The notes: generated by a model not told the origin, from the sequence alone. A stretch of DNA of 64,000 bases from Fimbriimonadales bacterium (GCA_038207365.1 JBBQZV010000012.1:30260-94259); one strand, 5' to 3'. Positions 2,545 to 57,994 are shown, counted from the stretch's first letter. Numbers and translations: made by a program.

Positions 2545-3270
2545 TCAGTGTGATAGGACGCTTACAAGATCTTCGTAAGGCCGATCTGCAATAACGGCGA
2601 CAGTATTAACATTTTCTGATCGTGCGACGCAATTCATGTTATTGACCCGACCCGCCATGAATCCAGGGTGTGTGTCCATTGGAGTCATCCCTTCAAATTC
2701 GATGTGCCTCTGGATGAAAAGTACCGTTACATCCCCAGCGCCATCTCGAACCTGGACACGGCGTACGGGGACGCCATCCATCTCGTAGGAAAATCCTCCT
2801 CGAAATTGAGGATGGTCAGGCGTGGACAACCAAGACTGGTTGATAAGGTTCTTTAGCCAAATCTCTTTATTTCCATCAACTGGAGATTTAGGTGCATTTA
2901 GTCCGCCATAAAAACGAGCGAGATTCGGGTGGAGTGGGCTTGCATAATTCGAGTCGTGACGTCTCGAAACGAGTCCGCCTGCGACGATAACCAAGAAGAA
3001 AATCCCACATAAGGCTGGAGCAAATCGTCCAACAACGAATTCAACTCGGCGAGCCTTGTCGATCTCATTTAGCCGAAGAACGCAGGACTTCCACTCGTCT
3101 TTCGCGTCCACTTGAGAGGACTTCGTCCAAACAAACTCCTTGAGTTGTCGAATGGCTTGGATTTCTCGCGAAGCGATTGGCGATGATTCTATCAACGCCT
3201 CCATCTCAGCGACCTGGCTCGTGCTTAATTCGCCATCGACAAAAGCGTGAAATTCGATTGGATCACTCAT
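2545..3270 (-). CDS. Putative membrane anti-sigma factor
   Basis: Overlaps the upstream ECF sigma gene by 4 bp. The N-terminus has the anti-sigma signature FHAFVDGEL, followed by a TM segment (ALCGIFFLVIVAGGLV) and a periplasmic domain. Confidence 0.6.
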   Translation of the reverse strand: MSDPIEFHAFVDGELSTSQVAEMEALIESSPIASREIQAIRQLKEFVWTKSSQVDAKDEWKSCVLRLNEIDKARRVEFVVGRFAPALCGIFFLVIVAGGLVSRRHDSNYASPLHPNLARFYGGLNAPKSPVDGNKEIWLKNLINQSWLSTPDHPQFRGGFSYEMDGVPVRRVQVRDGAGDVTVLFIQRHIEFEGMTPMDTHPGFMAGRVNNMNCVARSENVNTVAVIADRPYEDLVSVLSH

Positions 3271-3869
3271 TCAGATGTTCCCTTTTTCAAATATCCTTCC
3301 TTTAATGCGTACCCTTCCAATGCTCTTCTTAGCATGGAACGGCCCCTGGCTAACCTTGACCGCACGGTTCCAATCGGTACATTGGTGGCATCAGCTATTT
3401 CTTGATAGCTCAAGCCTTCTATGTCGCTCAAAATTACTGCCATTCTAAAATCTTCAGGCACTTTCCATAGGGCTTCCTCAATCTCAGATCCAACAACGTT
3501 ATCAAAAAGCAGCCGATCAGGCAGCTCAGTTTCTGACGAGACTGGCTCAATTGCGCCTTCCTCTTCCAAGGATCCCAGCATCGGTCCACGTTGTCGTTGG
3601 CGATACCTGTTGATATACAGATTCGTTACGATCCGCAGCATCCAAGCTTTGAAATTCAAACCATCGAACCGCTCATAAGCGTCGTAAGCTCGAACTATTG
3701 CTTCCTGTGCCAGGTCCTCAGCATCTTCGCGCGACCGAGTTAGTCTTAACGCAGTACCTAAGACCGAGGGGAAAACCTTCTCAGCCTGGCGTTCAAAGGA
3801 CTCGCGTTTGTCGCGTTTTCCAAAGAGCATAGGTCGAGGGATTCTACCCACCCATCCATTCCAACCCAT
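3267..3869 (-). CDS. RNA polymerase ECF-type sigma-70 factor
   Basis: Sigma-70 region 2 (LAQEAIVRAYDAYERF...WMLRIVTNLYINRYR) and region 4 HTH (LSYQEIADATNVPIGTVRSRLARGR). Confidence 0.85.
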   Translation of the reverse strand: MGWNGWVGRIPRPMLFGKRDKRESFERQAEKVFPSVLGTALRLTRSREDAEDLAQEAIVRAYDAYERFDGLNFKAWMLRIVTNLYINRYRQRQRGPMLGSLEEEGAIEPVSSETELPDRLLFDNVVGSEIEEALWKVPEDFRMAVILSDIEGLSYQEIADATNVPIGTVRSRLARGRSMLRRALEGYALKEGYLKKGTSE

Positions 3870-13519: not shown

Positions 13520-15853
13520 CTATTTGAAATTGACAATGGTTGCGCCGTGTCCACCTTCCGCAGGCTCCCCGTCTCGAAACGAGGAAACACCGGGATGTTT
13601 TTTCAGGTATTCCTGAGTGACCTTTCGCAGGATGCCCTCACCTTTCCCGTGAATGATTCTAGCGCTTGGTAGTCCCGCGAGCATTGCATCATCAACGAAC
13701 TTCTCAAGGTCACGTGTCGCTTCTTCGGCACGCATGTGGCGCAAATGTAGCTCCGTCGTCGCATTGATCGCCTTGCTCAACTGAATACTTGAGCGCGGCT
13801 TCACCGTCGAAGGTTTAGCCTCGACAGGCGTCAAACTCGTTAGAGGTACGGTGATCTTGATGGCTCCAACCTGTACCAAAACATTGTTGCTACTCGACTC
13901 CTCAAGGACCGTACCAGTCTGGGAGTAGCCATCAATTCGCACCGTCAGCCCCTTTGTAAGGGCACCAGGAGCAATGCCACCCACTTTGGGACCACGCGGC
14001 AGAAACTCTTTCGCGAAATCATGTCCGATATCTTGAAGTTCGTTTAGCTTCTTTCTGACTGAGTCTCGACTGCGTTGATCTCCAGTCGAACTCTTAAGTT
14101 CTTCAAATAGCTTCGTCGCCTCTAACCGGATTTCGCGCAATGCAGCCTCAATGACTTCGTTTGCCTTGCCGTGAGCATTCTTCCGAATTTCTTCGGCTTC
14201 AGCAAGTTTTCGAGCGGCTCGAGCCTCGGCCTTACGCAACTCTTCTGACCGTTTGTCGGCTTCACTCTGGGCAATTCTCGCCAGTCGCTGAGATTGTTCG
14301 AGCTGCTCCATCATCGATGAGACCGTCCCAGCTTGAACTCCAAGGTTCTCTCTGGCACGGTCTACGATCAATTTGGGAATGCCGTACTTCTCTGCAATTC
14401 TCAATGCCTGTGACGCGCCAGGCGCACCCATCAATAGCCGGTAAGTCGGCCTCAAGGATTTGGGATCGAACTCCATCGCCGCGTTTTGGAAGCCGTCCGT
14501 GTTGTAGGCAAATGCCTTGAGTTCACCGTAATGGGTGCTGGCAAGGATTGCTGCACCACGATTTGACATTTCGGTGAGGATCTCTTGAGCTAGAGCGGCT
14601 CCTTCTGCTGGGTCCGTACCAGCGCCGGCTTCATCAAGCAATACAAGGGCACCCTTCTTCAACGTTCTCAGTGCCTCAGCGATATTCTTGATATGGCCGC
14701 TGAACGTAGATAGTGATTGTTCGAGACTTTGTTCGTCTCCAATATCAGCCCATATTTGGGAAAACGGCCCGAACTTGATATCGAGCGCTGGAGGCAAGAG
14801 TCCCGACTGAGCCATGACTACAAAGAGTCCAATGGTTTTTATTGCGACGGTTTTTCCACCGGTGTTGGGCCCAGTTATGAGGACACTGGAGCCCTTTCCA
14901 ACGGCCAAGTCGAGCGGGATGGTCGTTTCTGGATTGAGTAGCGGATGCTTTGCCGATTGAACTTGAATCCAGGCGTCCCCTTGAAGGATCGGCATAGTCC
15001 CCTTCATATCAAAGCCCAAACGAGCCTTAGCGAACGCAAGATCTACCTGGCTAGCAGCCTCAATTCCGCCAGATGCTTCCACGGCGATAGCTCCTACTTT
15101 TGCGCTGAGCTGGGTCAAAATGCGCGCTTCTTCAATCCGCTCTCCAGCCTGAACTTCCCGAAGCGAATTGCCCATCTGCAGAACATCTTCAGGCTCAATA
15201 AATATCGTCTGTCCGCTCGCGCTGGTGTCATGAACGATGCCGCGAATCTTCCCCCGATTCTCTGCCTTAAGAGGAATGACGTATCGACCATCGCGAACCG
15301 TATAAATCGGATCGCTCAGTAATTCACGAGTTTTTCCCGTCGTGTAGCTTTGGATGCGTTCATGGATTCGAGCCGTCGTGCTCTTTTTCTTCTGTCGCAA
15401 TAAGGTTAGGGCGGGACTCGCACCGTCTTTGACGCCTCCATCGGACTCCAGACTATCGAAAAGGGCTTCTTCCACCCGCCTGGCCTCAGGTAAGGCATCG
15501 CCATACGGTGAAAGCAGTGGCATATCGAACCGTCGAGCAGCAAGGAACGTTTTCAGGTTCCGCATTCCCATCAGCGCGTCAGCGATTTGATAGAGCTCCT
15601 GTCCGCCTAACACTCCGCCTTTAGATGCGACTTTCAACGGCTGGCGTAAGTCGCGAATCGGTCCCAATGAAGGGACGTGGTGTTTCGCTAATGCCTCGTG
15701 AGCTTCATTCGTTAGCGATAACAATTGCCAAACGCGCGCTGAATCAAAGGAGGGCCGAAGTTCATCAGCTAAGTCAGCGCCAAGCGCCGTCTCGCATTGT
15801 CTGCCGAGACGCTCTTTGATGACATCGAACTCAAGCACCTTTAGGGCGTGCAT
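13520..15853 (-). CDS. mutS2: Endonuclease MutS2 (MutS domain + C-terminal Smr domain)
   Basis: Walker A GPNTGGKT, a long coiled-coil region, and a C-terminal Smr domain (LHLRHMRAEEA...IIHGKGEGILRK). Confidence 0.85.
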   Translation of the reverse strand: MHALKVLEFDVIKERLGRQCETALGADLADELRPSFDSARVWQLLSLTNEAHEALAKHHVPSLGPIRDLRQPLKVASKGGVLGGQELYQIADALMGMRNLKTFLAARRFDMPLLSPYGDALPEARRVEEALFDSLESDGGVKDGASPALTLLRQKKKSTTARIHERIQSYTTGKTRELLSDPIYTVRDGRYVIPLKAENRGKIRGIVHDTSASGQTIFIEPEDVLQMGNSLREVQAGERIEEARILTQLSAKVGAIAVEASGGIEAASQVDLAFAKARLGFDMKGTMPILQGDAWIQVQSAKHPLLNPETTIPLDLAVGKGSSVLITGPNTGGKTVAIKTIGLFVVMAQSGLLPPALDIKFGPFSQIWADIGDEQSLEQSLSTFSGHIKNIAEALRTLKKGALVLLDEAGAGTDPAEGAALAQEILTEMSNRGAAILASTHYGELKAFAYNTDGFQNAAMEFDPKSLRPTYRLLMGAPGASQALRIAEKYGIPKLIVDRARENLGVQAGTVSSMMEQLEQSQRLARIAQSEADKRSEELRKAEARAARKLAEAEEIRKNAHGKANEVIEAALREIRLEATKLFEELKSSTGDQRSRDSVRKKLNELQDIGHDFAKEFLPRGPKVGGIAPGALTKGLTVRIDGYSQTGTVLEESSSNNVLVQVGAIKITVPLTSLTPVEAKPSTVKPRSSIQLSKAINATTELHLRHMRAEEATRDLEKFVDDAMLAGLPSARIIHGKGEGILRKVTQEYLKKHPGVSSFRDGEPAEGGHGATIVNFK

Positions 15854-30275: not shown

Positions 30276-30836
30276 TCATCGCAGACTAGGTTCTCTCACC
30301 ATCTTCACTTGCGGGATCGCTCCACTGCCGACATGTTGGGTGGTGGAGTTAGATTCAGCTTCTTCGCACGCGGTAAAACCAAATCTTTCATAAAATCGAA
30401 TTGTCCTTGCGTTATATGTAGCGACCCGTAGCCAAATGGGGCGGTCGAGATCGAACCATTTTAGGAGTGCATCCATGAGTTGAGCTCCGATGCCTATGCT
30501 ATGCCATTGGGGAGATACATAAATACTTCCGACCCACTGCTCCAGTTCTACAGATCGATTTCCAATAGCCATTCCAACGATGACGCCATCCATCTTAGCA
30601 ACCAAGTTAAGTACGTCTGGATCGCGAGGCACTTGATATCTCTGGGCTCGTTTAGCAATTCCGGCAGTGGATAAGTTCCCAGCAACCCAAGTCTTCACGA
30701 GATCCACGGTAATCCCCAACTCATCATTCGGATAGGTGTCAACCCAAGCATCGTAAACAACCCGTCCAATGCCTGCAGCATCCTCTGGCGATGCTTGAGA
30801 AATCCTAAATACGTTAGATGTAGCTTGTAAGTCCAC
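30276..30836 (-). CDS. GNAT-family N-acetyltransferase
   Basis: Motif A-like VGSIYVSPQWHSIGIGAQLM and motif B RFYERFGF. Confidence 0.7.
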   Translation of the reverse strand: MDLQATSNVFRISQASPEDAAGIGRVVYDAWVDTYPNDELGITVDLVKTWVAGNLSTAGIAKRAQRYQVPRDPDVLNLVAKMDGVIVGMAIGNRSVELEQWVGSIYVSPQWHSIGIGAQLMDALLKWFDLDRPIWLRVATYNARTIRFYERFGFTACEEAESNSTTQHVGSGAIPQVKMVREPSLR

Positions 30837-31028
30837 GACACAGAACTATAGCAACTATCTGATTTGCACATGTCCTCGTGAGGCTCAACCTATTCCTAAT
30901 AATATTTCTCAAAAAAGTCGCAACCTTTGGGGTTAAACCGTGTAATTCTACTTTTGGATGCCGCACTTAATTCTTGTATTGACAGGAAACGCTGCCCGAA
31001 AGCGTACGGCCTTGGCGGCACGACAAAT

Positions 31029-32972
31029 ATGCTAATTGCACAAGCTAGCCCGGAGTCTTTGCTCCGATTCTGGTGGGTATTACTCCCCTTACTCGCTATC
31101 CTTTTCTTCAAGCCGATCCTTCGCCTCTTCCTGGGAATGGTAATCGTTCCAGAGAACCGCATTGGCTTGGTCACCAAGAAGTTTGTTCTTATTGGTGCGA
31201 ACTCAAAACTGCCTGACGGACGCATTTTGGCGACCCGCGGTGAAGCAGGTATGCAAGCTCGATCGCTTGCTCCCGGCCTCTATTGGATGATGTGGCCCTG
31301 GCAGTATTCAGTAATGATGCAGCCATTCACCATGATTCCAGAAGGGAAAATTGGTCTTGTACTTGCGAATGACGGACGAGAAATGCCGACAGGAAACATC
31401 CTTGCTCGGAAAGTCGAATGCGACAATTTCCAGGACACGGTTACCTTCCTGGATGCGGGCGGCCAAAAGGGTCGCCAGACTCACCTGCTCACGTCCGGAA
31501 CCTATCGAATCAACACTTTAGCTTTCGGCATCACCCTCGCTGACATTGTAGTTATCAAGGAGAACATGGTCGGAATAGTGACCGCTCTTGATGGCCAGCC
31601 TATTCGAAGGGGTCAGATCGCTGGTGAACAAATCGAAGGTCATAACAACTTCCAAAACGTTGATATGTTCCTCAATAACGGAGGCAATCGGGGCCTGCAA
31701 CCCCATGTAATGTTGGCAGGAAGCTATTTCATTAACAAATGGGCGATTCAAATCGAGGAAACGCCAATGACCGAAGTTCCTATCGGCCATGTTGGAGTCG
31801 TCATTTCGTATATCGGCGAGGATGGAAAGGACGTCACTGGAGAATCGTTCAAACACGGAAACATTGTCGAAAAAGGATTCCGTGGAGTCTGGATGGAGCC
31901 ACTAGGTCCTGGCAAATATCCTATCAACAAATACACGATGAAGGTGGAGCTAGTCCCCACCACCAACCTTGTCTTGAACTGGGCTAATGCACGAAGCGAA
32001 TCCCACGCTTTGGACAAGAACTTGAGCACGATAACGGTTCGCAGCAAGGATGGATTTCCTTTCAATCTGGATGTGTCGCAGATCATCCACATTCCTGCCA
32101 TCGAAGCTCCAAAAGTCATCGCACGATTTGGCAGCATGATGAACCTCGTTTCCCAAGTTCTGGAGCCAACCATCGGAAACTACTTCCGAAATAGCGCTCA
32201 AGACAGCGACGTTATCAGCTTCCTTAGCACTCGAAAGGAACGGCAGATGGCTGCCAAAGAGCACATCAACGAGGTGCTGGTTGAATATAACGTTAACGCC
32301 GTCGATACCCTAATCGGAGACATCACTCCCCCCGAAGCGCTGATGAAAACGCTGACTGATCGAAAGATCGCTCAAGAGGAAGAAAAGACCTATGAGACCC
32401 AGCGAATGGCTCAAGAGAAGCGCCAGGGCATGGAAAAGGAAACGGCTATTGCCGACATGCAGCGTGAGATTGTTAAAGCCCAGCAAAGCGTAGAAATCTC
32501 GCAGCGAACAGCAGATGCCACGGTCAAGAAAGCTGAAGGCGACGCAACCAGCCTCAAACTTCAGGTCAATGCCGAATCTGAAGCGATGAAGATGCGCGCC
32601 AATGCAGAAGCCGAAGCGACAAAGGCAAAGGGTGCTGCTCAGGCCGAATATACGAAGATGAACGCTGTCGCTGAAGCCGAGCGCATCTCCAAGACGGGTC
32701 TTGCCGAAGCCGAAAAGATCATGGCGATTGGTAAGTCCACCGCCGAAGCCTACGAACTCCAAGTCAAAGCCATGGGCGAAGAGAACTTCACGCGCTTCAA
32801 GATCACCGAAGAAATCAGCAAGGGCAAGATCAAAATCATCCCCGACCTATTCATCGGAGGCAGCACCGGAGACTCCTCCAACGGAGCCATGAACGGCCTA
32901 ATGGGCATGCAACTCCTCCAAATGATCCAATCCAAAAACGGCAAAGTGCCAGAAGAAGCCACCACGGAGTAA
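31029..32972 (+). CDS. Flotillin-like SPFH/band-7 protein (YqiK/FloA-like)
   Basis: N-terminal TM, an SPFH domain, and a long Ala/Glu/Lys-rich coiled coil (EAEATKAKGAAQAEY...). The start was trimmed to MLIAQASPESLLRFWW. Confidence 0.75.
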   Translation: MLIAQASPESLLRFWWVLLPLLAILFFKPILRLFLGMVIVPENRIGLVTKKFVLIGANSKLPDGRILATRGEAGMQARSLAPGLYWMMWPWQYSVMMQPFTMIPEGKIGLVLANDGREMPTGNILARKVECDNFQDTVTFLDAGGQKGRQTHLLTSGTYRINTLAFGITLADIVVIKENMVGIVTALDGQPIRRGQIAGEQIEGHNNFQNVDMFLNNGGNRGLQPHVMLAGSYFINKWAIQIEETPMTEVPIGHVGVVISYIGEDGKDVTGESFKHGNIVEKGFRGVWMEPLGPGKYPINKYTMKVELVPTTNLVLNWANARSESHALDKNLSTITVRSKDGFPFNLDVSQIIHIPAIEAPKVIARFGSMMNLVSQVLEPTIGNYFRNSAQDSDVISFLSTRKERQMAAKEHINEVLVEYNVNAVDTLIGDITPPEALMKTLTDRKIAQEEEKTYETQRMAQEKRQGMEKETAIADMQREIVKAQQSVEISQRTADATVKKAEGDATSLKLQVNAESEAMKMRANAEAEATKAKGAAQAEYTKMNAVAEAERISKTGLAEAEKIMAIGKSTAEAYELQVKAMGEENFTRFKITEEISKGKIKIIPDLFIGGSTGDSSNGAMNGLMGMQLLQMIQSKNGKVPEEATTE

Positions 32973-32979
32973 CTCCACC

Positions 32980-33015
32980 CCACATTCGACAACGCCGTCG
33001 AATGTGGCCAATTTC
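32980..33015 (+). terminator. Hairpin terminator after the flotillin gene (11-bp perfect stem CCACATTCGAC/GTCGAATGTGG, 6-nt loop, followed by CCAATTTCAT)
   Basis: A perfect inverted repeat 8 bp after the stop codon. The T-tract is short. Confidence 0.45.
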
Positions 33016-33113
33016 ATCCTGCCATTCGAAACCTGCCCCAAAGCGAGATTCCGCCAAACGATCTCCACCAAGTAGTCAAAGCATGAAAGAATGTTCCCCA
33101 CAAGGAATCCTAG

Positions 33114-33358
33114 TTCGTTTTCAGTCCCTATCCATTCGTAGCCACTCAGCGAGGTGCAGTCGCCGATTCCTGTCCGAGTGGGCTCCGCCCCACGAGTTTG
33201 AGTCGGCGCATCGAGCGCAGTGGCGTAAGCGATGGATCAGGACAGAAAACGAACGGCCAAGCGGAGCGACCCAAACGAAATCACAAAGCCAACAACCGAT
33301 CGAGCCAGGCAAAACATAAACAAAGGAAACAAGAAAGTTTCCCCAAAAACTAATCCAG
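33114..33358. repeat. Repeat unit 1 (core 33114..~33273, linker ~33274..33358)
   Basis: Core begins TTCGTTTTCAGTCCCTATCC and ends GGATCAGGACAGAAAACGAACGGCCAAGCGGAGCGACCC. Confidence 0.85.
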
Positions 33359-33600
33359 TTCGTTTTCAGTCCATATTCATTGTAGCCACTCAGCGAGGTG
33401 CAGTCAGCCGACTCTTGTCCGAGTGGGCTCCGCCCCACGAGTTTAAGTCGGCGCACCGAGCGCAGTGGCGTCAAGCGATGGATCAGGACAGAAAACGAAC
33501 GGCCACAGCGGAGCGACCCAGGGAAACTACAAAGCCAACAAATCCTAGAGCGACAGCCATATCCGGTCAAAGAAAGAATGTTCCCCAAAAGGTAATCCAG
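33359..33600. repeat. Repeat unit 2
   Basis: Same core with a few substitutions and indels. The linker shares ACAAAGCCAACAA and the ...GAATGTTCCCCAAAAGGTAATCCAG tail. Confidence 0.85.
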
Positions 33601-33839
33601 TTCGTTTTCAGTCCCTATACATCGTAGCCACTAAGCGAGGTGCAGTCAGCCGATTCCTGTCTGAGTGGGCTCCGTCCCACGAGTTGAATCGGCGCACCGA
33701 GCGCAGTGGCGTCAAGCGATGGATCAGGACAGAAAACGAACGGCCACAGCGGAGCGCCCCAGGAAAATATCAACGGTAACAGACCCAAGAACGAGCAAAA
33801 GCCAACCAAAGAATGAAGGTCCCCAAAAAACTAATCCCG
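33601..33839. repeat. Repeat unit 3
   Basis: Same core; the linker is more diverged. Confidence 0.85.
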
Positions 33840-34080
33840 TTCGTTTTCATTCCCTATCCATCGTAGCCACTCAGCAAGGTGCATTCAGCCGACTCTTGTC
33901 CGAGTGGGCTCCTCCCCACGAGTTTGAGTCGGCGCACCGAGCACAGTGGCGTCAAGCGATGGATCAGGACAGAAAACGAACGGCCACAGCGGAGCGCCCC
34001 AAGAGAATCACAAAGCAAACAAAAGAACAATCCAGCCAGAAACCCAATCTGTCCCTACAAGAGAACCCACCCGTAACTCA
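33840..34080. repeat. Repeat unit 4 (its linker runs into the 3' end of the DUF2339 gene)
   Basis: Same core; the linker has no conserved tail and merges into the stop region of the minus-strand gene at 34082. Confidence 0.8.
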
Positions 34081-34081
34081 C

Positions 34082-36526
34082 TCACTCCAAAGGCAAATCC
34101 GTGCCCTTATCTTCAGGCAACAAAGCATTGGCCGAATGCATTCGGATATACCAATACCCTCCCCCCACCATCCCAATCCCCAGCAAAAGAAGAATCAAAA
34201 CCCGAACACCTGGATCAAGCGACGACAGGTCATACAGAAAGACCTTGACCAACGTCGCTCCGAATACGCCAAAGCTCCAATAACGCATGTTGCGCAGCCT
34301 GAACTGGAAGCCCAAAGCAAGCAATGCAATTGCATAGACAATCCACGCCATCGTCACTGCAGGCCCGTCTTTCAGACCGATCCCTTTCGATGTGAAGAGG
34401 AGATAGGCAAACCGCGAAAACAGAACCCAAGTGTAGAAGATGCAGAAGGAAACGAGGGTTTCCTTCTTGCATAGACGAGGGCCAGTCGCACTAGCCATCA
34501 AGAGGATACAGGCCATCGAGCACGCGAGGAGCCCCGTCTCAATAGTGGACGGCGTCCGCTGATAGAGTTGAATAGTCAGCGCTCCCGCTCCACCAAAGAG
34601 CAAGGCTAACCATCCCTGGGGAACAAGTGCGGTCCAAACGAGGCGACTGGCAAGTCCCCCGGAGAGAGCGGTAACGAGCAGCAAACCGATAACGATTGCA
34701 CACGGAACATTAAGGGCGATGGCAGGGAGCGTCAGCCAAAGTACGGACAGCCGCACGATGAGGCAGGCCATCACGGCACCAACTGCAGAAAGCACATTCG
34801 CTTCACTGTCTGATTCCGTGTTTATTCGTGTGGTTACGCCTGCAAAACAGGTCATACCTATAAGCAAGGCTAGTATGACGGTGTCGAAGGCTGGTGCAGG
34901 AAATCCATCAAAAATGAGCTGACTATATTGCAAGAGTGCTCCCAAGAAGGTCACCCATGCAAGCACAAGAACCATCCGCCAATGGGTTTGTTTGCTTACG
35001 GCAAAGAGTCCCGCCGAGAAAACAAAGAAGGAAACCACGAGCGCGAGAGATGCCGGATAACCAAACGTTGGCGTTGAAAGCAGTACAAAACCGAAGCGAC
35101 TAAACAACGGTAGGGCAATGATACTGGCTACGAGCATTGCATTTTGCGATGCTCCGCCAACTCGCTTAATCGCGAATCCTCCAACTACCGTGGCTACCAT
35201 AAAGGAAACTAAAAGCCAAGATTCTGTTGCTACCGTGAAATGGAAATTGGAAGTGGACCAAGGCGTCGTATAAGCAACAAGGCCCAAAGACAAATTGAGA
35301 GCAGAAAGGCCAGCTAAAGCTTTGGGCGCAAATCGTAAGGCCGCGATTCCGAGCAGGATAGAGAACCCTGCGTAAGCAAATCCAGCTTCGAGTCGGTGGA
35401 AACCAACGGGTGTCAAGGCCGTCGATAGGCTAAGCCCAGCAAGCCAAAAGGCGTTCCGAGCACCCGGCTTTGCAGTAAGCAAGTAACCCACTACTGCGGC
35501 TGGTCCAGACAATAGGAGGACGTGGAGCGACCCGTGAGCAGTCTCATCAAAGGCAAGCGCAGCGACCCCTCCAATAACGAGGAACACACCAGAAAGCATG
35601 CCCCAGGGGTCGAATTCAGTTTCTTTCCAGACTAAGGAATACACTAAAGCTGTGATCAAGCTTGTTCCATACAAGCCTCCGAGCCGAACGGGCCAGTCGT
35701 GGTTGTAAGTCATGGCTGGAATCAGGGCTGCCATGGCCGCTACGAAGAGCAACATCGACATTTCCAGCCACTTGTTCTTGACCACCAAGAGCGCGCAAGG
35801 CACGAGGATCAGGAAGTGGAGGCTAATATCCAGCGTCGCATTGTATCGGCTCATCGGCAACATCGCTGCCGTAAATCCACCCATCATTCCAATAGCCAAG
35901 AAGGAGCGAGACGACTTCAAATGGGAAAAGGCGAAATTGATGAAACTCAGGCACACAAAAAGCACCACGAGCGTCTCACCCGAATACAGATGTTTGAAGA
36001 GGTGAGCACCCGCGAAACTTAAGTAGAGTCCACAGGACCCAATTCCAACCATCAGTTGGCCAAACTCTTCCTTTTCGTTGCGCTTAATAAATCCGAGCCC
36101 AACGAAAGCTAAACAAAGGGCGATTTCACCGCTGAATTGGACGACGGGGGTGATGTACCCTTTTGATACCGCCAACGCCACCAAGTAGATGATGGCGATT
36201 ACGATCACAATGGCTCCACCCCGGAGCAGGCCTGTCAATCCAATCTTATATTCAAGGTCGTCAAGTTGCTTTTCACTTTTAGCGGTAGGCATTGGTTTGG
36301 GAACCACAGGTTCACGACCAAAGCTCTCCCATGCTGCAACCACGTTAGCGACGGGAATCTCCCGATGAATCGGGAGGATCGGAGGAGGAGCAACAACGAC
36401 CTGTTCGGGTTGAGTACCTCCAAGAACCAATTGCTCCACCCTTTGTATTCGGCGGGAAAGCTCGCTGATCGTTCTCTCTACATTCTCAAGTCGGGTTATG
36501 AGCGGGTTTGTTTCCGAATCTGACAT
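34082..36526 (-). CDS. Large polytopic membrane protein, DUF2339-like (N-terminal coiled coil followed by more than 20 TM helices)
   Basis: N-terminal coiled coil LITRLENVERTISELSRRIQRVEQL, then an 814-aa highly hydrophobic body typical of DUF2339. Confidence 0.55.
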   Translation of the reverse strand: MSDSETNPLITRLENVERTISELSRRIQRVEQLVLGGTQPEQVVVAPPPILPIHREIPVANVVAAWESFGREPVVPKPMPTAKSEKQLDDLEYKIGLTGLLRGGAIVIVIAIIYLVALAVSKGYITPVVQFSGEIALCLAFVGLGFIKRNEKEEFGQLMVGIGSCGLYLSFAGAHLFKHLYSGETLVVLFVCLSFINFAFSHLKSSRSFLAIGMMGGFTAAMLPMSRYNATLDISLHFLILVPCALLVVKNKWLEMSMLLFVAAMAALIPAMTYNHDWPVRLGGLYGTSLITALVYSLVWKETEFDPWGMLSGVFLVIGGVAALAFDETAHGSLHVLLLSGPAAVVGYLLTAKPGARNAFWLAGLSLSTALTPVGFHRLEAGFAYAGFSILLGIAALRFAPKALAGLSALNLSLGLVAYTTPWSTSNFHFTVATESWLLVSFMVATVVGGFAIKRVGGASQNAMLVASIIALPLFSRFGFVLLSTPTFGYPASLALVVSFFVFSAGLFAVSKQTHWRMVLVLAWVTFLGALLQYSQLIFDGFPAPAFDTVILALLIGMTCFAGVTTRINTESDSEANVLSAVGAVMACLIVRLSVLWLTLPAIALNVPCAIVIGLLLVTALSGGLASRLVWTALVPQGWLALLFGGAGALTIQLYQRTPSTIETGLLACSMACILLMASATGPRLCKKETLVSFCIFYTWVLFSRFAYLLFTSKGIGLKDGPAVTMAWIVYAIALLALGFQFRLRNMRYWSFGVFGATLVKVFLYDLSSLDPGVRVLILLLLGIGMVGGGYWYIRMHSANALLPEDKGTDLPLE

Positions 36527-57958: not shown

Positions 57959-57994
57959 AACTCTGGAGCCAAGAATATTCTTGACTCCAGAGTT
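57959..57994. promoter_or_regulatory. 36-bp near-perfect palindrome (AACTCTGGAGCCAAGAAT|ATTCTTGACTCCAGAGTT) between the binding-protein and ATPase genes; an intercistronic attenuator or operator candidate
   Basis: Direct reading; there is one mismatch in 18 bp. It lies in the 127-bp gap between the SBP and ATPase genes. Confidence 0.4.

Follow-up and report, generated by a model that had tools for sequence, protein, structure and literature searches.

The stretch analysed here comprises 64,000 nucleotides from a Fimbriimonadales bacterium (GCA_038207365.1 JBBQZV010000012.1:30260-94259), referred to below as the window, and its subject is a tandem array of four long hairpin-forming units. The array lies in a gap of 1,109 bp between two convergent genes, a Band_7/flotillin-like gene on the plus strand and a gene for a DUF2339 membrane protein on the minus strand. 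The homologues of the DUF2339 protein come from Fimbriimonadaceae/Armatimonadota, and judged from them, the host is an uncultured member of the Fimbriimonadaceae (Armatimonadota). A preliminary description had placed the starts of the four units at 33114, 33359, 33601 and 33840, between the flotillin-like stop codon at 32972 and the DUF2339 stop codon at 34082, and all of its coordinates and motifs were recovered in the present analysis. Table 1 provides an overview of the features of the locus.

Table 1. Features of the hairpin array and its two flanking genes, with positions counted from the first nucleotide of the window.
Feature	Position	Strand	Evidence and properties
SPFH/Band_7 (flotillin-like) gene, upstream flank, context only	30927-32972	+	Open reading frame (ORF); Pfam PF01145, E = 5e-23
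Short terminator-like hairpin, 11-bp stem, 8 nt past the flotillin stop codon, with a weak U tract (CCAAUUUCAU)	32980-33007	+	-17.9 kcal/mol, z = -6.1
Whole tandem array: four hairpin cores, four linkers and five tails, ~4.4 units	33085-34081	+	TRF; unit alignment; nhmmer and covariance model give exactly four full copies
Hairpin core of unit 1, 142 nt	33113-33254	+	-69.3 kcal/mol, z = -7.1
Linker 1, A/C-rich and T-poor, ending in a semi-conserved tail (...GTTTCCCCAAAAACTAATCCAG)	33255-33357	+	Composition; divergence; mean unpaired probability 0.70 (+) vs 0.37 (-)
Hairpin core of unit 2, 143 nt	33358-33500	+	-69.0 kcal/mol, z = -8.2
Linker 2	33501-33599	+	Composition, divergence, unpaired probability
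Hairpin core of unit 3, 142 nt	33600-33741	+	-68.8 kcal/mol, z = -8.1
Linker 3	33742-33838	+	Composition, divergence, unpaired probability
Hairpin core of unit 4, 143 nt	33839-33981	+	-73.2 kcal/mol, z = -9.0
Linker 4 with degenerate terminal tail	33982-34081	+	Composition; adjoins the DUF2339 stop codon
Invariant 33-nt 3' arm and exit sequence AAGCGATGGATCAGGACAGAAAACGAACGGCCA, identical in all four units	33227-33259, 33473-33505, 33714-33746, 33954-33986	+	Alignment
DUF2339 membrane protein gene, convergent downstream flank, context only	34082-36526	-	Pfam PF10101, E = 6.5e-23

The four units align over their full length with a mean column identity of 86%, and each of them is made up of a hairpin core and a linker of ~100 nt. 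Measured between the hairpin starts (GTTCG at 33113, 33358, 33600 and 33839, with TTCG at the four positions given above), the periods are 245, 242 and 239 bp, as originally reported. TRF delimited one array (33085-34022, period 239, 3.9 copies, 83% matches), which is the sole tandem repeat within the window. A period of 481 bp fits the array better (87% matches), which indicates that a two-unit block was duplicated. An invariant 29-mer, GATGGATCAGGACAGAAAACGAACGGCCA, occurs four times, as opposed to an expectation of zero by chance. A fifth, degenerate tail closes the array at ~34070, and the last linker reaches exactly to the stop codon of the DUF2339 gene. On the plus strand the linkers consist of 38-47% A, 28-35% C, 16-22% G and 7-11% T, with a C/G ratio of ~1.2-3.1 in windows of 78 nt, which agrees with the strong A/C richness already noted for this strand. 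The short hairpin behind the flotillin-like gene sits one linker length (105 nt) upstream of unit 1, and syntenic relatives likewise carry one short palindrome at its position. No direct repeats or target-site duplications flank the hairpins (...AATCCAG / GTTCG...CGAAC / GGCCAC...).

The array region is non-coding, as had been proposed: the ORFs that run across it have no match to any Pfam family, their frames shift from unit to unit, and they are regarded as artefacts. Consensus scans revealed no promoter-like site conserved between the units, although the promoters of Armatimonadota are uncharacterised, and no intrinsic terminator on the plus strand of any unit. Two terminator-like sites on the minus strand use a small, poorly conserved hairpin located just before the long one. 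When the unit tails were inspected by eye, no convincing sigma-70, sigma-54 or extracytoplasmic function (ECF) motif common to all of them was seen. A repeat without its own promoter or plus-strand terminator in each unit fits a co-transcribed element of a 3' untranslated region (UTR) rather than a series of independent genes. ARAGORN found nothing on the array. With Rfam (release 15), the comparison recommended in the preliminary description, the core matched no family: at gathering thresholds the whole window contains only two tRNAs, located elsewhere than the array, and at E <= 10 the region 32900-34200 gave only a chance narK match (16.7 bits vs 43.2) that lies outside the array.

Each core folds into a single long imperfect hairpin of 50 pairs, with -69 to -73 kcal/mol and z = -7.1 to -9.0 relative to dinucleotide shuffles. 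No other inverted repeat in the window comes close in length to these hairpins, whose terminal inverted repeats measure 25-27 nt. The nested stems previously described (GCCACT/AGTGGC, GCCGAYTC/GARTCGGC and GTGGG-6 nt-CCCAC) are all present in the consensus fold. The outer closing stem of ~22 bp is present as well, but three of its positions are not paired. Altogether, 98.5% of the alignment cells are paired in this fold, as opposed to 28-43% when the partners are slid, and the fold is retained in all four units despite 20 variable columns. The covariation consists of one compensatory pair (columns 56/91: C-G, U·G, U-A) and five wobble changes, and is not significant, as 263 of 500 shuffles do equally well; with four almost identical copies, the test has no statistical power. 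Across the linker, each invariant 3' arm can form pairs with the 5' arm of the next unit as well (inverted repeats I2, I4 and I8; for example 33837-33863 with 33717-33743), but the fold within the core dominates the ensemble over these alternative pairings between units.

The question of which strand carries the structure was approached from several sides. In a partition-function fold of the whole array, the four hairpins form at P >= 0.96 in both senses, which does not discriminate between the strands, and as single-stranded DNA the hairpins are equally significant on either strand (z = -5.3 to -8.0). The stem variants, if read on the plus strand, comprise five G·U wobbles, one compensatory change and three broken cells, as opposed to two wobbles, one compensatory change and five broken cells on the minus strand. 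The energy of the consensus fold is -71.2 kcal/mol on the plus and -64.5 kcal/mol on the minus strand, and the linkers are mostly single-stranded in the plus sense only (unpaired probability 0.58-0.70 vs 0.37-0.41). The substitutions appear to lean weakly towards a hairpin of the plus strand. This lean would fit a plus-strand RNA or a single-stranded DNA hairpin of the top strand equally well and is not decisive. A 3' extension of the DUF2339 transcript on the minus strand, which had been suggested as the origin of a structured RNA, is not favoured, given the direction of this weak lean.

The segments of the units have diverged to very different degrees. Pairwise identity amounts to 92-96% in the cores, 55-74% in the linkers and 57-82% in the tails, which bears out a core more than 90% identical between copies and a diverged middle of the linker. 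The tail of ~25 nt, previously taken as conserved, is less so than this implied. Variable columns make up 20 of 144 in the core and 44 of 72 in the linker (p = 2.7e-12), so the hairpin module is clearly constrained or homogenised relative to the linkers. Within the core, 12 of 44 unpaired columns vary compared with 8 of 100 paired ones (p = 0.004); if only substitutions are counted, 8 of 44 unpaired columns vary (p = 0.09). In the outer helix, none of the 26 columns of the 3' side is variable, as opposed to 5 of 27 on the 5' side (p = 0.05). The parsimony-informative sites support the grouping (u1,u3)(u2,u4) in the tail and in the first (5') half of the core, which fits the super-period of 481 bp, whereas those of the linkers group (u1,u4) or (u1,u2). 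The array is therefore mosaic, as expected with recombination or gene conversion between units. The linkers are homologous to each other, and homology between the units extends over their whole length.

A second array was found by way of a protein database. The plus-frame translation of the array was compared exhaustively with 1.84 billion representative proteins using phmmer, and the single match (P0056; 263 aa, E = 3e-20) is a deposited NCBI 'protein', a singleton from a contig of 27,127 bp, which represents a spurious ORF. It reads through a related array in shifting frames (...NPVRFQSLSIVA...SEWAPP...RTERSGV...GQKTNGQAERP...) and spans at least three hairpins, two of them with a spacing of 243 nt, and one of its linkers is nearly identical to linker 1 of the window. 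In one unit, 44 aa (~132 nt) are missing, and the missing segment corresponds exactly to the hairpin. The junction would agree with a deletion between AAAAC direct repeats, of which one lies in the tail and the other in the 3' arm, and a unit without its hairpin is typical of palindrome loss by slippage. The last unit (unit D) is more diverged and degraded. By codon comparison, two of its unambiguous changes, CCG to CTG and CGA to TGA, would again correspond to C-to-U at G-paired positions. Since both P0056 and the DUF2339 protein of the window are singletons at NCBI and the database contains no close orthologue of the latter, the second array is most probably located on another contig of the same metagenome-assembled genome. 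With this array, the repeat family occupies at least two loci, and some of its units decay.

Beyond these two arrays, the searches returned no relatives. Within the window, nhmmer and the covariance model found no copies other than the four units of the array. A site on the minus strand at 93-123, ATGGGTCACGGCAAAAACGAACGGCCACC, has the 15-mer AAAACGAACGGCCAC in common with the invariant 3' arm (nhmmer E = 0.037); it lies in coding-like sequence at the edge of the window and is probably a chance match. An exact scan of the GTDB genomes (185,579 representatives) with the gapped pattern of the closing stem gave 0 matches, and the same was true of an exact scan of viral contigs (IMG/VR) and JGI metagenomes with a 23-mer of the 3' arm. 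Degenerate back-translated patterns (alignment A5) yielded only chance pattern matches in genomes, metagenomes and viral contigs, none of which was confirmed. BLASTN in distant mode against phage and plasmid records found nothing, and neither did a search of protein databases with the 155-aa ORF on the minus strand of the array.

Neither an array nor any tandem repeat is present at the loci, syntenic or nearly so, of the closest orthologues of the DUF2339 gene (L001, L003, L005, L006 and L007). Among the syntenic relatives, the closest is Fimbriimonas sp. GCA_031292555.1 (L003), whose DUF2339 protein is 49% identical and whose gene order is that of the window (Redoxin, DUF2339, Band_7, Glyoxalase, AraC, N_methyl). 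Its gap between Band_7 and DUF2339 measures 51 bp and holds a single GC-rich terminator-type hairpin. In L007, a syntenic metagenome scaffold from ENA, the convergent gap is 444 bp long (3120-3563), with a perfect palindrome with 15-bp arms (GATGGGTCCCATAGG/CCTATGGGACCCATC) just past the stop codon of Band_7 and, in addition, 10 consecutive N that represent a scaffold gap, in which an unresolved repeat could be hidden. By eye, fragments of the L007 gap seemed to be shared with the array; the best BLAST score of 22.3 bits equals the 95th percentile of shuffled controls, and a relationship was rejected. Judged from these loci, the array is a lineage-specific gain at a site where relatives carry one small terminator hairpin. 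A small variable islet adjoins the array locus: between Band_7 and glyoxalase, L003 carries a Zeta_toxin/AAA_33 gene, a DUF6717 gene and a 55-aa ORF (14644-15693), and the window has a GNAT acetyltransferase instead at the matching site (30276-30836).

Of the ~59 ORFs with a length of 150 aa or more in the window, nearly all were compared with Pfam. Those scanned are ordinary chromosomal genes, encoding GNATs, AraC, glyoxalase, redoxin, flavodoxin, glycoside hydrolases, ABC transporters, GlnRS, MutS2, ECF sigma factors and others. None of them encodes a transposase (including Y1_Tnp), an integrase, a tyrosine recombinase, a reverse transcriptase or a Cas protein, in agreement with the earlier remark that no cas gene, transposase or integrase lies nearby. 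PADLOC on the neighbours of the array gave just two marginal, generic P-loop matches, to a small AAA ATPase ~5 kb away. No GC-skew inflection or other chromosomal landmark coincides with the array locus.

The long fold-back hairpin, the tandem duplication of hairpin and flank, the mosaic concerted evolution, the convergent 3' gap, the lack of own promoters and partner genes, the presence at multiple loci and the lineage specificity together match the kind of element known as extragenic palindromic repeat clusters. The explanation that we favour, though only tentatively, is a lineage-specific cluster of this kind, comparable to tandem clusters of REPINs (hairpins formed from repetitive extragenic palindromic (REP) sequences) and to bacterial interspersed mosaic elements (BIMEs), which would act on RNA in cis and serve as a terminator, as a barrier at the 3' end and as an insulator. 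A unit of a 142-nt fold-back hairpin and an A/C-rich linker would have been amplified in tandem, and duplication of a two-unit block would have been followed by recombination or gene conversion between units. By analogy with REP/BIME and REPIN elements, the array would be transcribed and form a bidirectional 3'-end module between the flotillin-like and the DUF2339 gene. The very stable hairpins may pause RNA polymerase and block 3'-to-5' exonucleases, and the unstructured linkers of the plus-sense transcript, in which C exceeds G, may serve as Rho-loading (rut-like) sites. In this way, the array would terminate and insulate both convergent transcripts and stabilise their 3' ends. Transcription, the terminator, stabiliser and insulator activities and the involvement of Rho are all proposed here on the strength of these analogies.

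The preliminary description stated that no described element has such an architecture. This is too strong, as tandem REPIN clusters (Bertels & Rainey 2011, PMC3116915) and BIME/REP arrays in 3' UTRs and convergent gaps have been well studied. In Pseudomonas fluorescens SBW25, ordered tandem clusters consist of a hairpin element repeated with its flanks, and the largest contains four REPINs over >700 bp (PMC3116915). Like the array, these clusters are extragenic, and their unit contains a hairpin-forming inverted repeat of ~100-150 nt that is found in tandem together with its flanks (PMC3116915). Their hairpin is likewise better conserved than its surroundings, and the structure is possible in single-stranded DNA or in mRNA. 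The four units of hairpin and linker in the window form such an ordered tandem cluster. However, REPINs are built from two short REP palindromes of ~20-25 nt, are mostly found as singlets, dispersed in the hundreds, and are connected with a REP-associated tyrosine transposase (RAYT), whereas the arms of the hairpins studied here are not palindromic, two arrays are known, the linkers are A/C-rich and T-poor, and neither a singlet nor a RAYT was seen in 64 kb. Folded alone, the halves of the core give weak and inconsistent structures (-15 to -19 kcal/mol per 71 nt, with a different fold in each unit), and they do not qualify as REP palindromes. As the arms are not REP palindromes and neither singlets nor RAYT were seen in the 64-kb window, it is not established that the array belongs to the REPIN family proper.

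REP elements are found preferentially in gaps between convergent genes, and the enterobacterial repetitive intergenic consensus (ERIC) affects mRNA stability (PMC3184786). In Escherichia coli, REP325 is in part a Rho-dependent terminator and an mRNA stabiliser that protects upstream mRNA from decay, and the presence of REPs between two convergent genes goes along with a higher expression of the pair (bioRxiv 10.64898/2026.03.23.713779). REP/BIME arrays such as REP325 resemble the present array in that they are extragenic hairpins located downstream of genes and between convergent genes. Unlike the array, REP hairpins are about 35 nt long, GC-rich and of alternating orientation in BIMEs; the hairpins described here measure 142 nt, share one orientation and are separated by spacers of ~100 nt, and their role in cis is putative. 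Further resemblance exists to ERIC, Correia and Nezha, elements of the type of miniature inverted-repeat transposable elements (MITEs), which are about 100-235 bp long, contain a long imperfect palindrome, are intergenic and are often co-transcribed at the 3' ends of genes with effects on mRNA stability (PMC3184786). MITEs differ from the array by their target-site duplications and by dispersed single insertions with unrelated flanks. An assignment to the MITEs was rejected: terminal inverted repeats are present in the array, but there are no flanking direct repeats, and the linkers are homologous between units. The REP- or MITE-like hairpin array listed among the earlier candidates is thus the best supported as a kind of element, without the defining palindromes of REPs or the insertion marks of MITEs.

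Other known systems with tandem repeats or strand-specific hairpins were also compared. The NsiR1 repeats of heterocystous cyanobacteria each possess their own regulated promoter and terminator and give rise to an RNA of ~60 nt that is conserved in many genera. Unlike such tandem small RNA genes (PMC6596454), the array has no detected promoter or terminator per unit, with the reservation made above for the promoters of Armatimonadota, and shows no conservation beyond one lineage. Integron attC arrays and CALINs, which are clusters of attC sites without an integrase, have similar imperfect hairpins, which reach ~140 nt and, as single strands, fold strand-specifically, and the base of an attC hairpin carries the boxes R'' (RYYYAAC) and R' (GTTRRRY). 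This assignment was rejected as well, since a regular-expression scan found no R''/R' pair on either strand, no ORF cassettes lie between the hairpins and the window encodes no IntI or other tyrosine recombinase; the stem ends (5'-GTTCG...CGAAC-3') have the opposite polarity to attC. The ToxI RNAs of type III toxin-antitoxin systems consist of short tandem repeats (~36 nt) immediately upstream of a gene for a ToxN-type endoribonuclease. The period of the array is ~240 nt and both of its neighbours are membrane-protein genes without a PADLOC match, and a repeat of the ToxI type, which is mentioned in PMC4147584, was discarded.

Several points weigh against a terminator and insulator cluster. 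The short hairpin at 32980-33007 may already end most transcription of the plus strand before the array is reached. A barrier or terminator needs pairing only, which leaves the sequence conservation of the loops, the bulges and especially the 33-nt 3' arm unaccounted for, and a simple barrier role does not account for the extreme T-poverty of the linkers either. The core hairpin is far longer than REPs (142 nt vs about 35 nt), four hairpins of this length exceed the apparent needs of termination, and the arms are not REP-like palindromes. Dispersed single copies are absent from the 64 kb, as is a RAYT/Y1 transposase from the window, and every functional step is one that we infer. The invariance of the 3' arm, the conserved bulges and loops, the length and number of the hairpins and the T-poor linkers keep two other readings alive, a new multi-hairpin non-coding RNA (ncRNA) and protein binding at the DNA level.

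A new structured ncRNA from the plus strand, which the preliminary description had already listed as a candidate in the form of a tandemly repeated RNA, is possible but rather unlikely. It would be either a 'beads-on-a-string' molecule of ~1 kb or a set of four RNAs of ~150-250 nt, with the hairpins as modules for sequence-specific protein binding or RNase III-type processing, the invariant 3' arm as the functional (mature or bound) part, and the A/C-rich linkers as single-stranded spacers or Hfq/Rho-type binding sites. Such an RNA agrees with a conserved core between unconserved linkers, in which even the unpaired positions are far more conserved than the linkers, and with an outer 3' arm that is invariant while its 5' partner varies. 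The stem variants and the energy of the consensus fold, both in favour of the plus strand, the linkers that are unpaired only in this sense, the two further changes of C-to-U type suggested for unit D of P0056 and the family member at a second locus point in the same direction. However, the two strands differ little (about 7:1 events, not significant), and a hairpin of single-stranded DNA would fit this difference too. The covariation is not significant, no conserved promoter or terminator per unit was found, and the second array contains hairpin-less and degraded units. Inverted-repeat elements, and not functional ncRNAs, typically have a long fold-back that is self-complementary almost throughout, and no homologue was found outside the lineage, so there is no sign of long-term conservation. 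A more specific version is a plus-strand multi-hairpin RNA of a kind unknown so far, with four rigid imperfect duplexes of ~50 bp and unstructured spacers of A and C only, which would undergo RNase III-like processing or sequence-specific binding, with the 33-nt 3' arm as product or recognition site, and act as a lineage-specific regulatory or sequestering RNA at no fewer than two loci; we give this a small probability. If the ncRNA reading were true, it would mean a new class of RNA, confined so far to one uncultured lineage, and as long as no further members are known, its general impact would be modest.

It is also doubtful that the array represents a non-autonomous mobile element of REPIN or MITE type, whose hairpin would be recognised as single-stranded DNA by a transposase (e.g. 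Y1/RAYT) encoded elsewhere. The arrays would then be by-products of insertion beside existing copies and of tandem duplication, and would have no function for the host. The fold-back architecture with its terminal inverted repeats, the presence at two or more loci and the absence from the syntenic site of the relative L003 are consistent with such an element, and tandem REPIN clusters are documented (PMC3116915). A strand-specific, G·T-tolerant conservation of the hairpin is what would be expected from recognition of single-stranded DNA of the IS200/IS605 type. The tetranucleotide GTAG is found at the same place in every core, although one GTAG is expected by chance at such a sequence length. 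On the other hand, target-site duplications are lacking around the hairpins, and the linkers are homologous between units and even between both arrays, so whole units were duplicated and not hairpins inserted. Single copies are missing from the 64 kb, a transposase from the window and further copies from every other genome collection searched, and the arms are not REP palindromes.

The view that the array is a neutral minisatellite, produced by a recent tandem duplication without function, would explain the similarity of the cores by age or gene conversion only. The restriction to one lineage, the mosaic units that point to gene conversion, the insignificant covariation and the decayed units in the second array agree with this. 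Against it, divergence differs about six-fold (p = 3e-12) between neighbouring segments of one and the same duplicated unit, changes within the core are more frequent at unpaired than at paired positions, all four units retain the fold in spite of the variable columns, and the family is maintained at two loci. A purely neutral minisatellite is unlikely, and we give little credence to this reading.

Another reading is an element that functions at the level of DNA, either as cruciform-forming palindromes or as repeated sites for a nucleoid-associated protein, gyrase, a recombinase or a partition protein, and its probability is low. The hairpins are as significant as single-stranded DNA on both strands, the invariant stretch of 33 nt could be a protein site, and some BIMEs are reported to bind integration host factor and gyrase (PMC3184786). 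However, a site in double-stranded DNA would not yield the wobble bias towards the plus strand and leaves the strongly strand-asymmetric A/C-rich linkers unexplained, and neither a chromosomal landmark such as a GC-skew inflection nor a candidate protein gene is found next to the array.

A repeat-spacer guide array (CRISPR- or TIGR-like), with 'repeats' of ~170 nt and variable 'spacers' of ~55-70 nt, shares with the locus only a superficial alternation of conserved and variable segments and is effectively refuted, since the 'spacers' are mutually homologous with a uniform, extremely A/C-rich composition, one of them recurs almost unchanged in the second array, and no cas, tas or other effector or defence genes are present apart from the marginal P-loop matches mentioned above. 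Viroid-like or ribozyme multimers were excluded too, there being no ribozyme match and the linkers being unable to pair.

Two observations concern other parts of the window. The listed 354-aa ORF at 1427-2491 on the minus strand (Peripla_BP_2) overlaps with its 5' end the tRNA at 2393-2465 on the plus strand, so its true start codon must be located further downstream. A near-perfect palindrome of 36 bp, AACTCTGGAGCCAAGAATATTCTTGACTCCAGAGTT, lies at 57959-57994 between the gene of a periplasmic sugar-binding protein and that of an ABC ATPase of the same transporter cluster, and could be an operator or an intra-operon hairpin.

The locus is a clean natural example of concerted evolution, in which the structured core has kept an identity of 92-96% and the spacers of the same units have drifted to 55-74%. 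Spurious ORFs over such arrays are deposited as proteins, which makes protein databases a practical means of tracing families of non-coding repeats. To our knowledge, no such repeats have been described in the Armatimonadota, a poorly studied phylum. If the favoured explanation of an extragenic palindromic repeat cluster is true, 3'-end control by extragenic hairpin arrays in the manner of REP, REPIN and BIME elements would extend to this phylum, and it would do so in an unusual form: the hairpin is very long, all copies have the same orientation, and the A/C-rich spacers have a strong strand bias and may link the loading of Rho to pausing at the hairpins.

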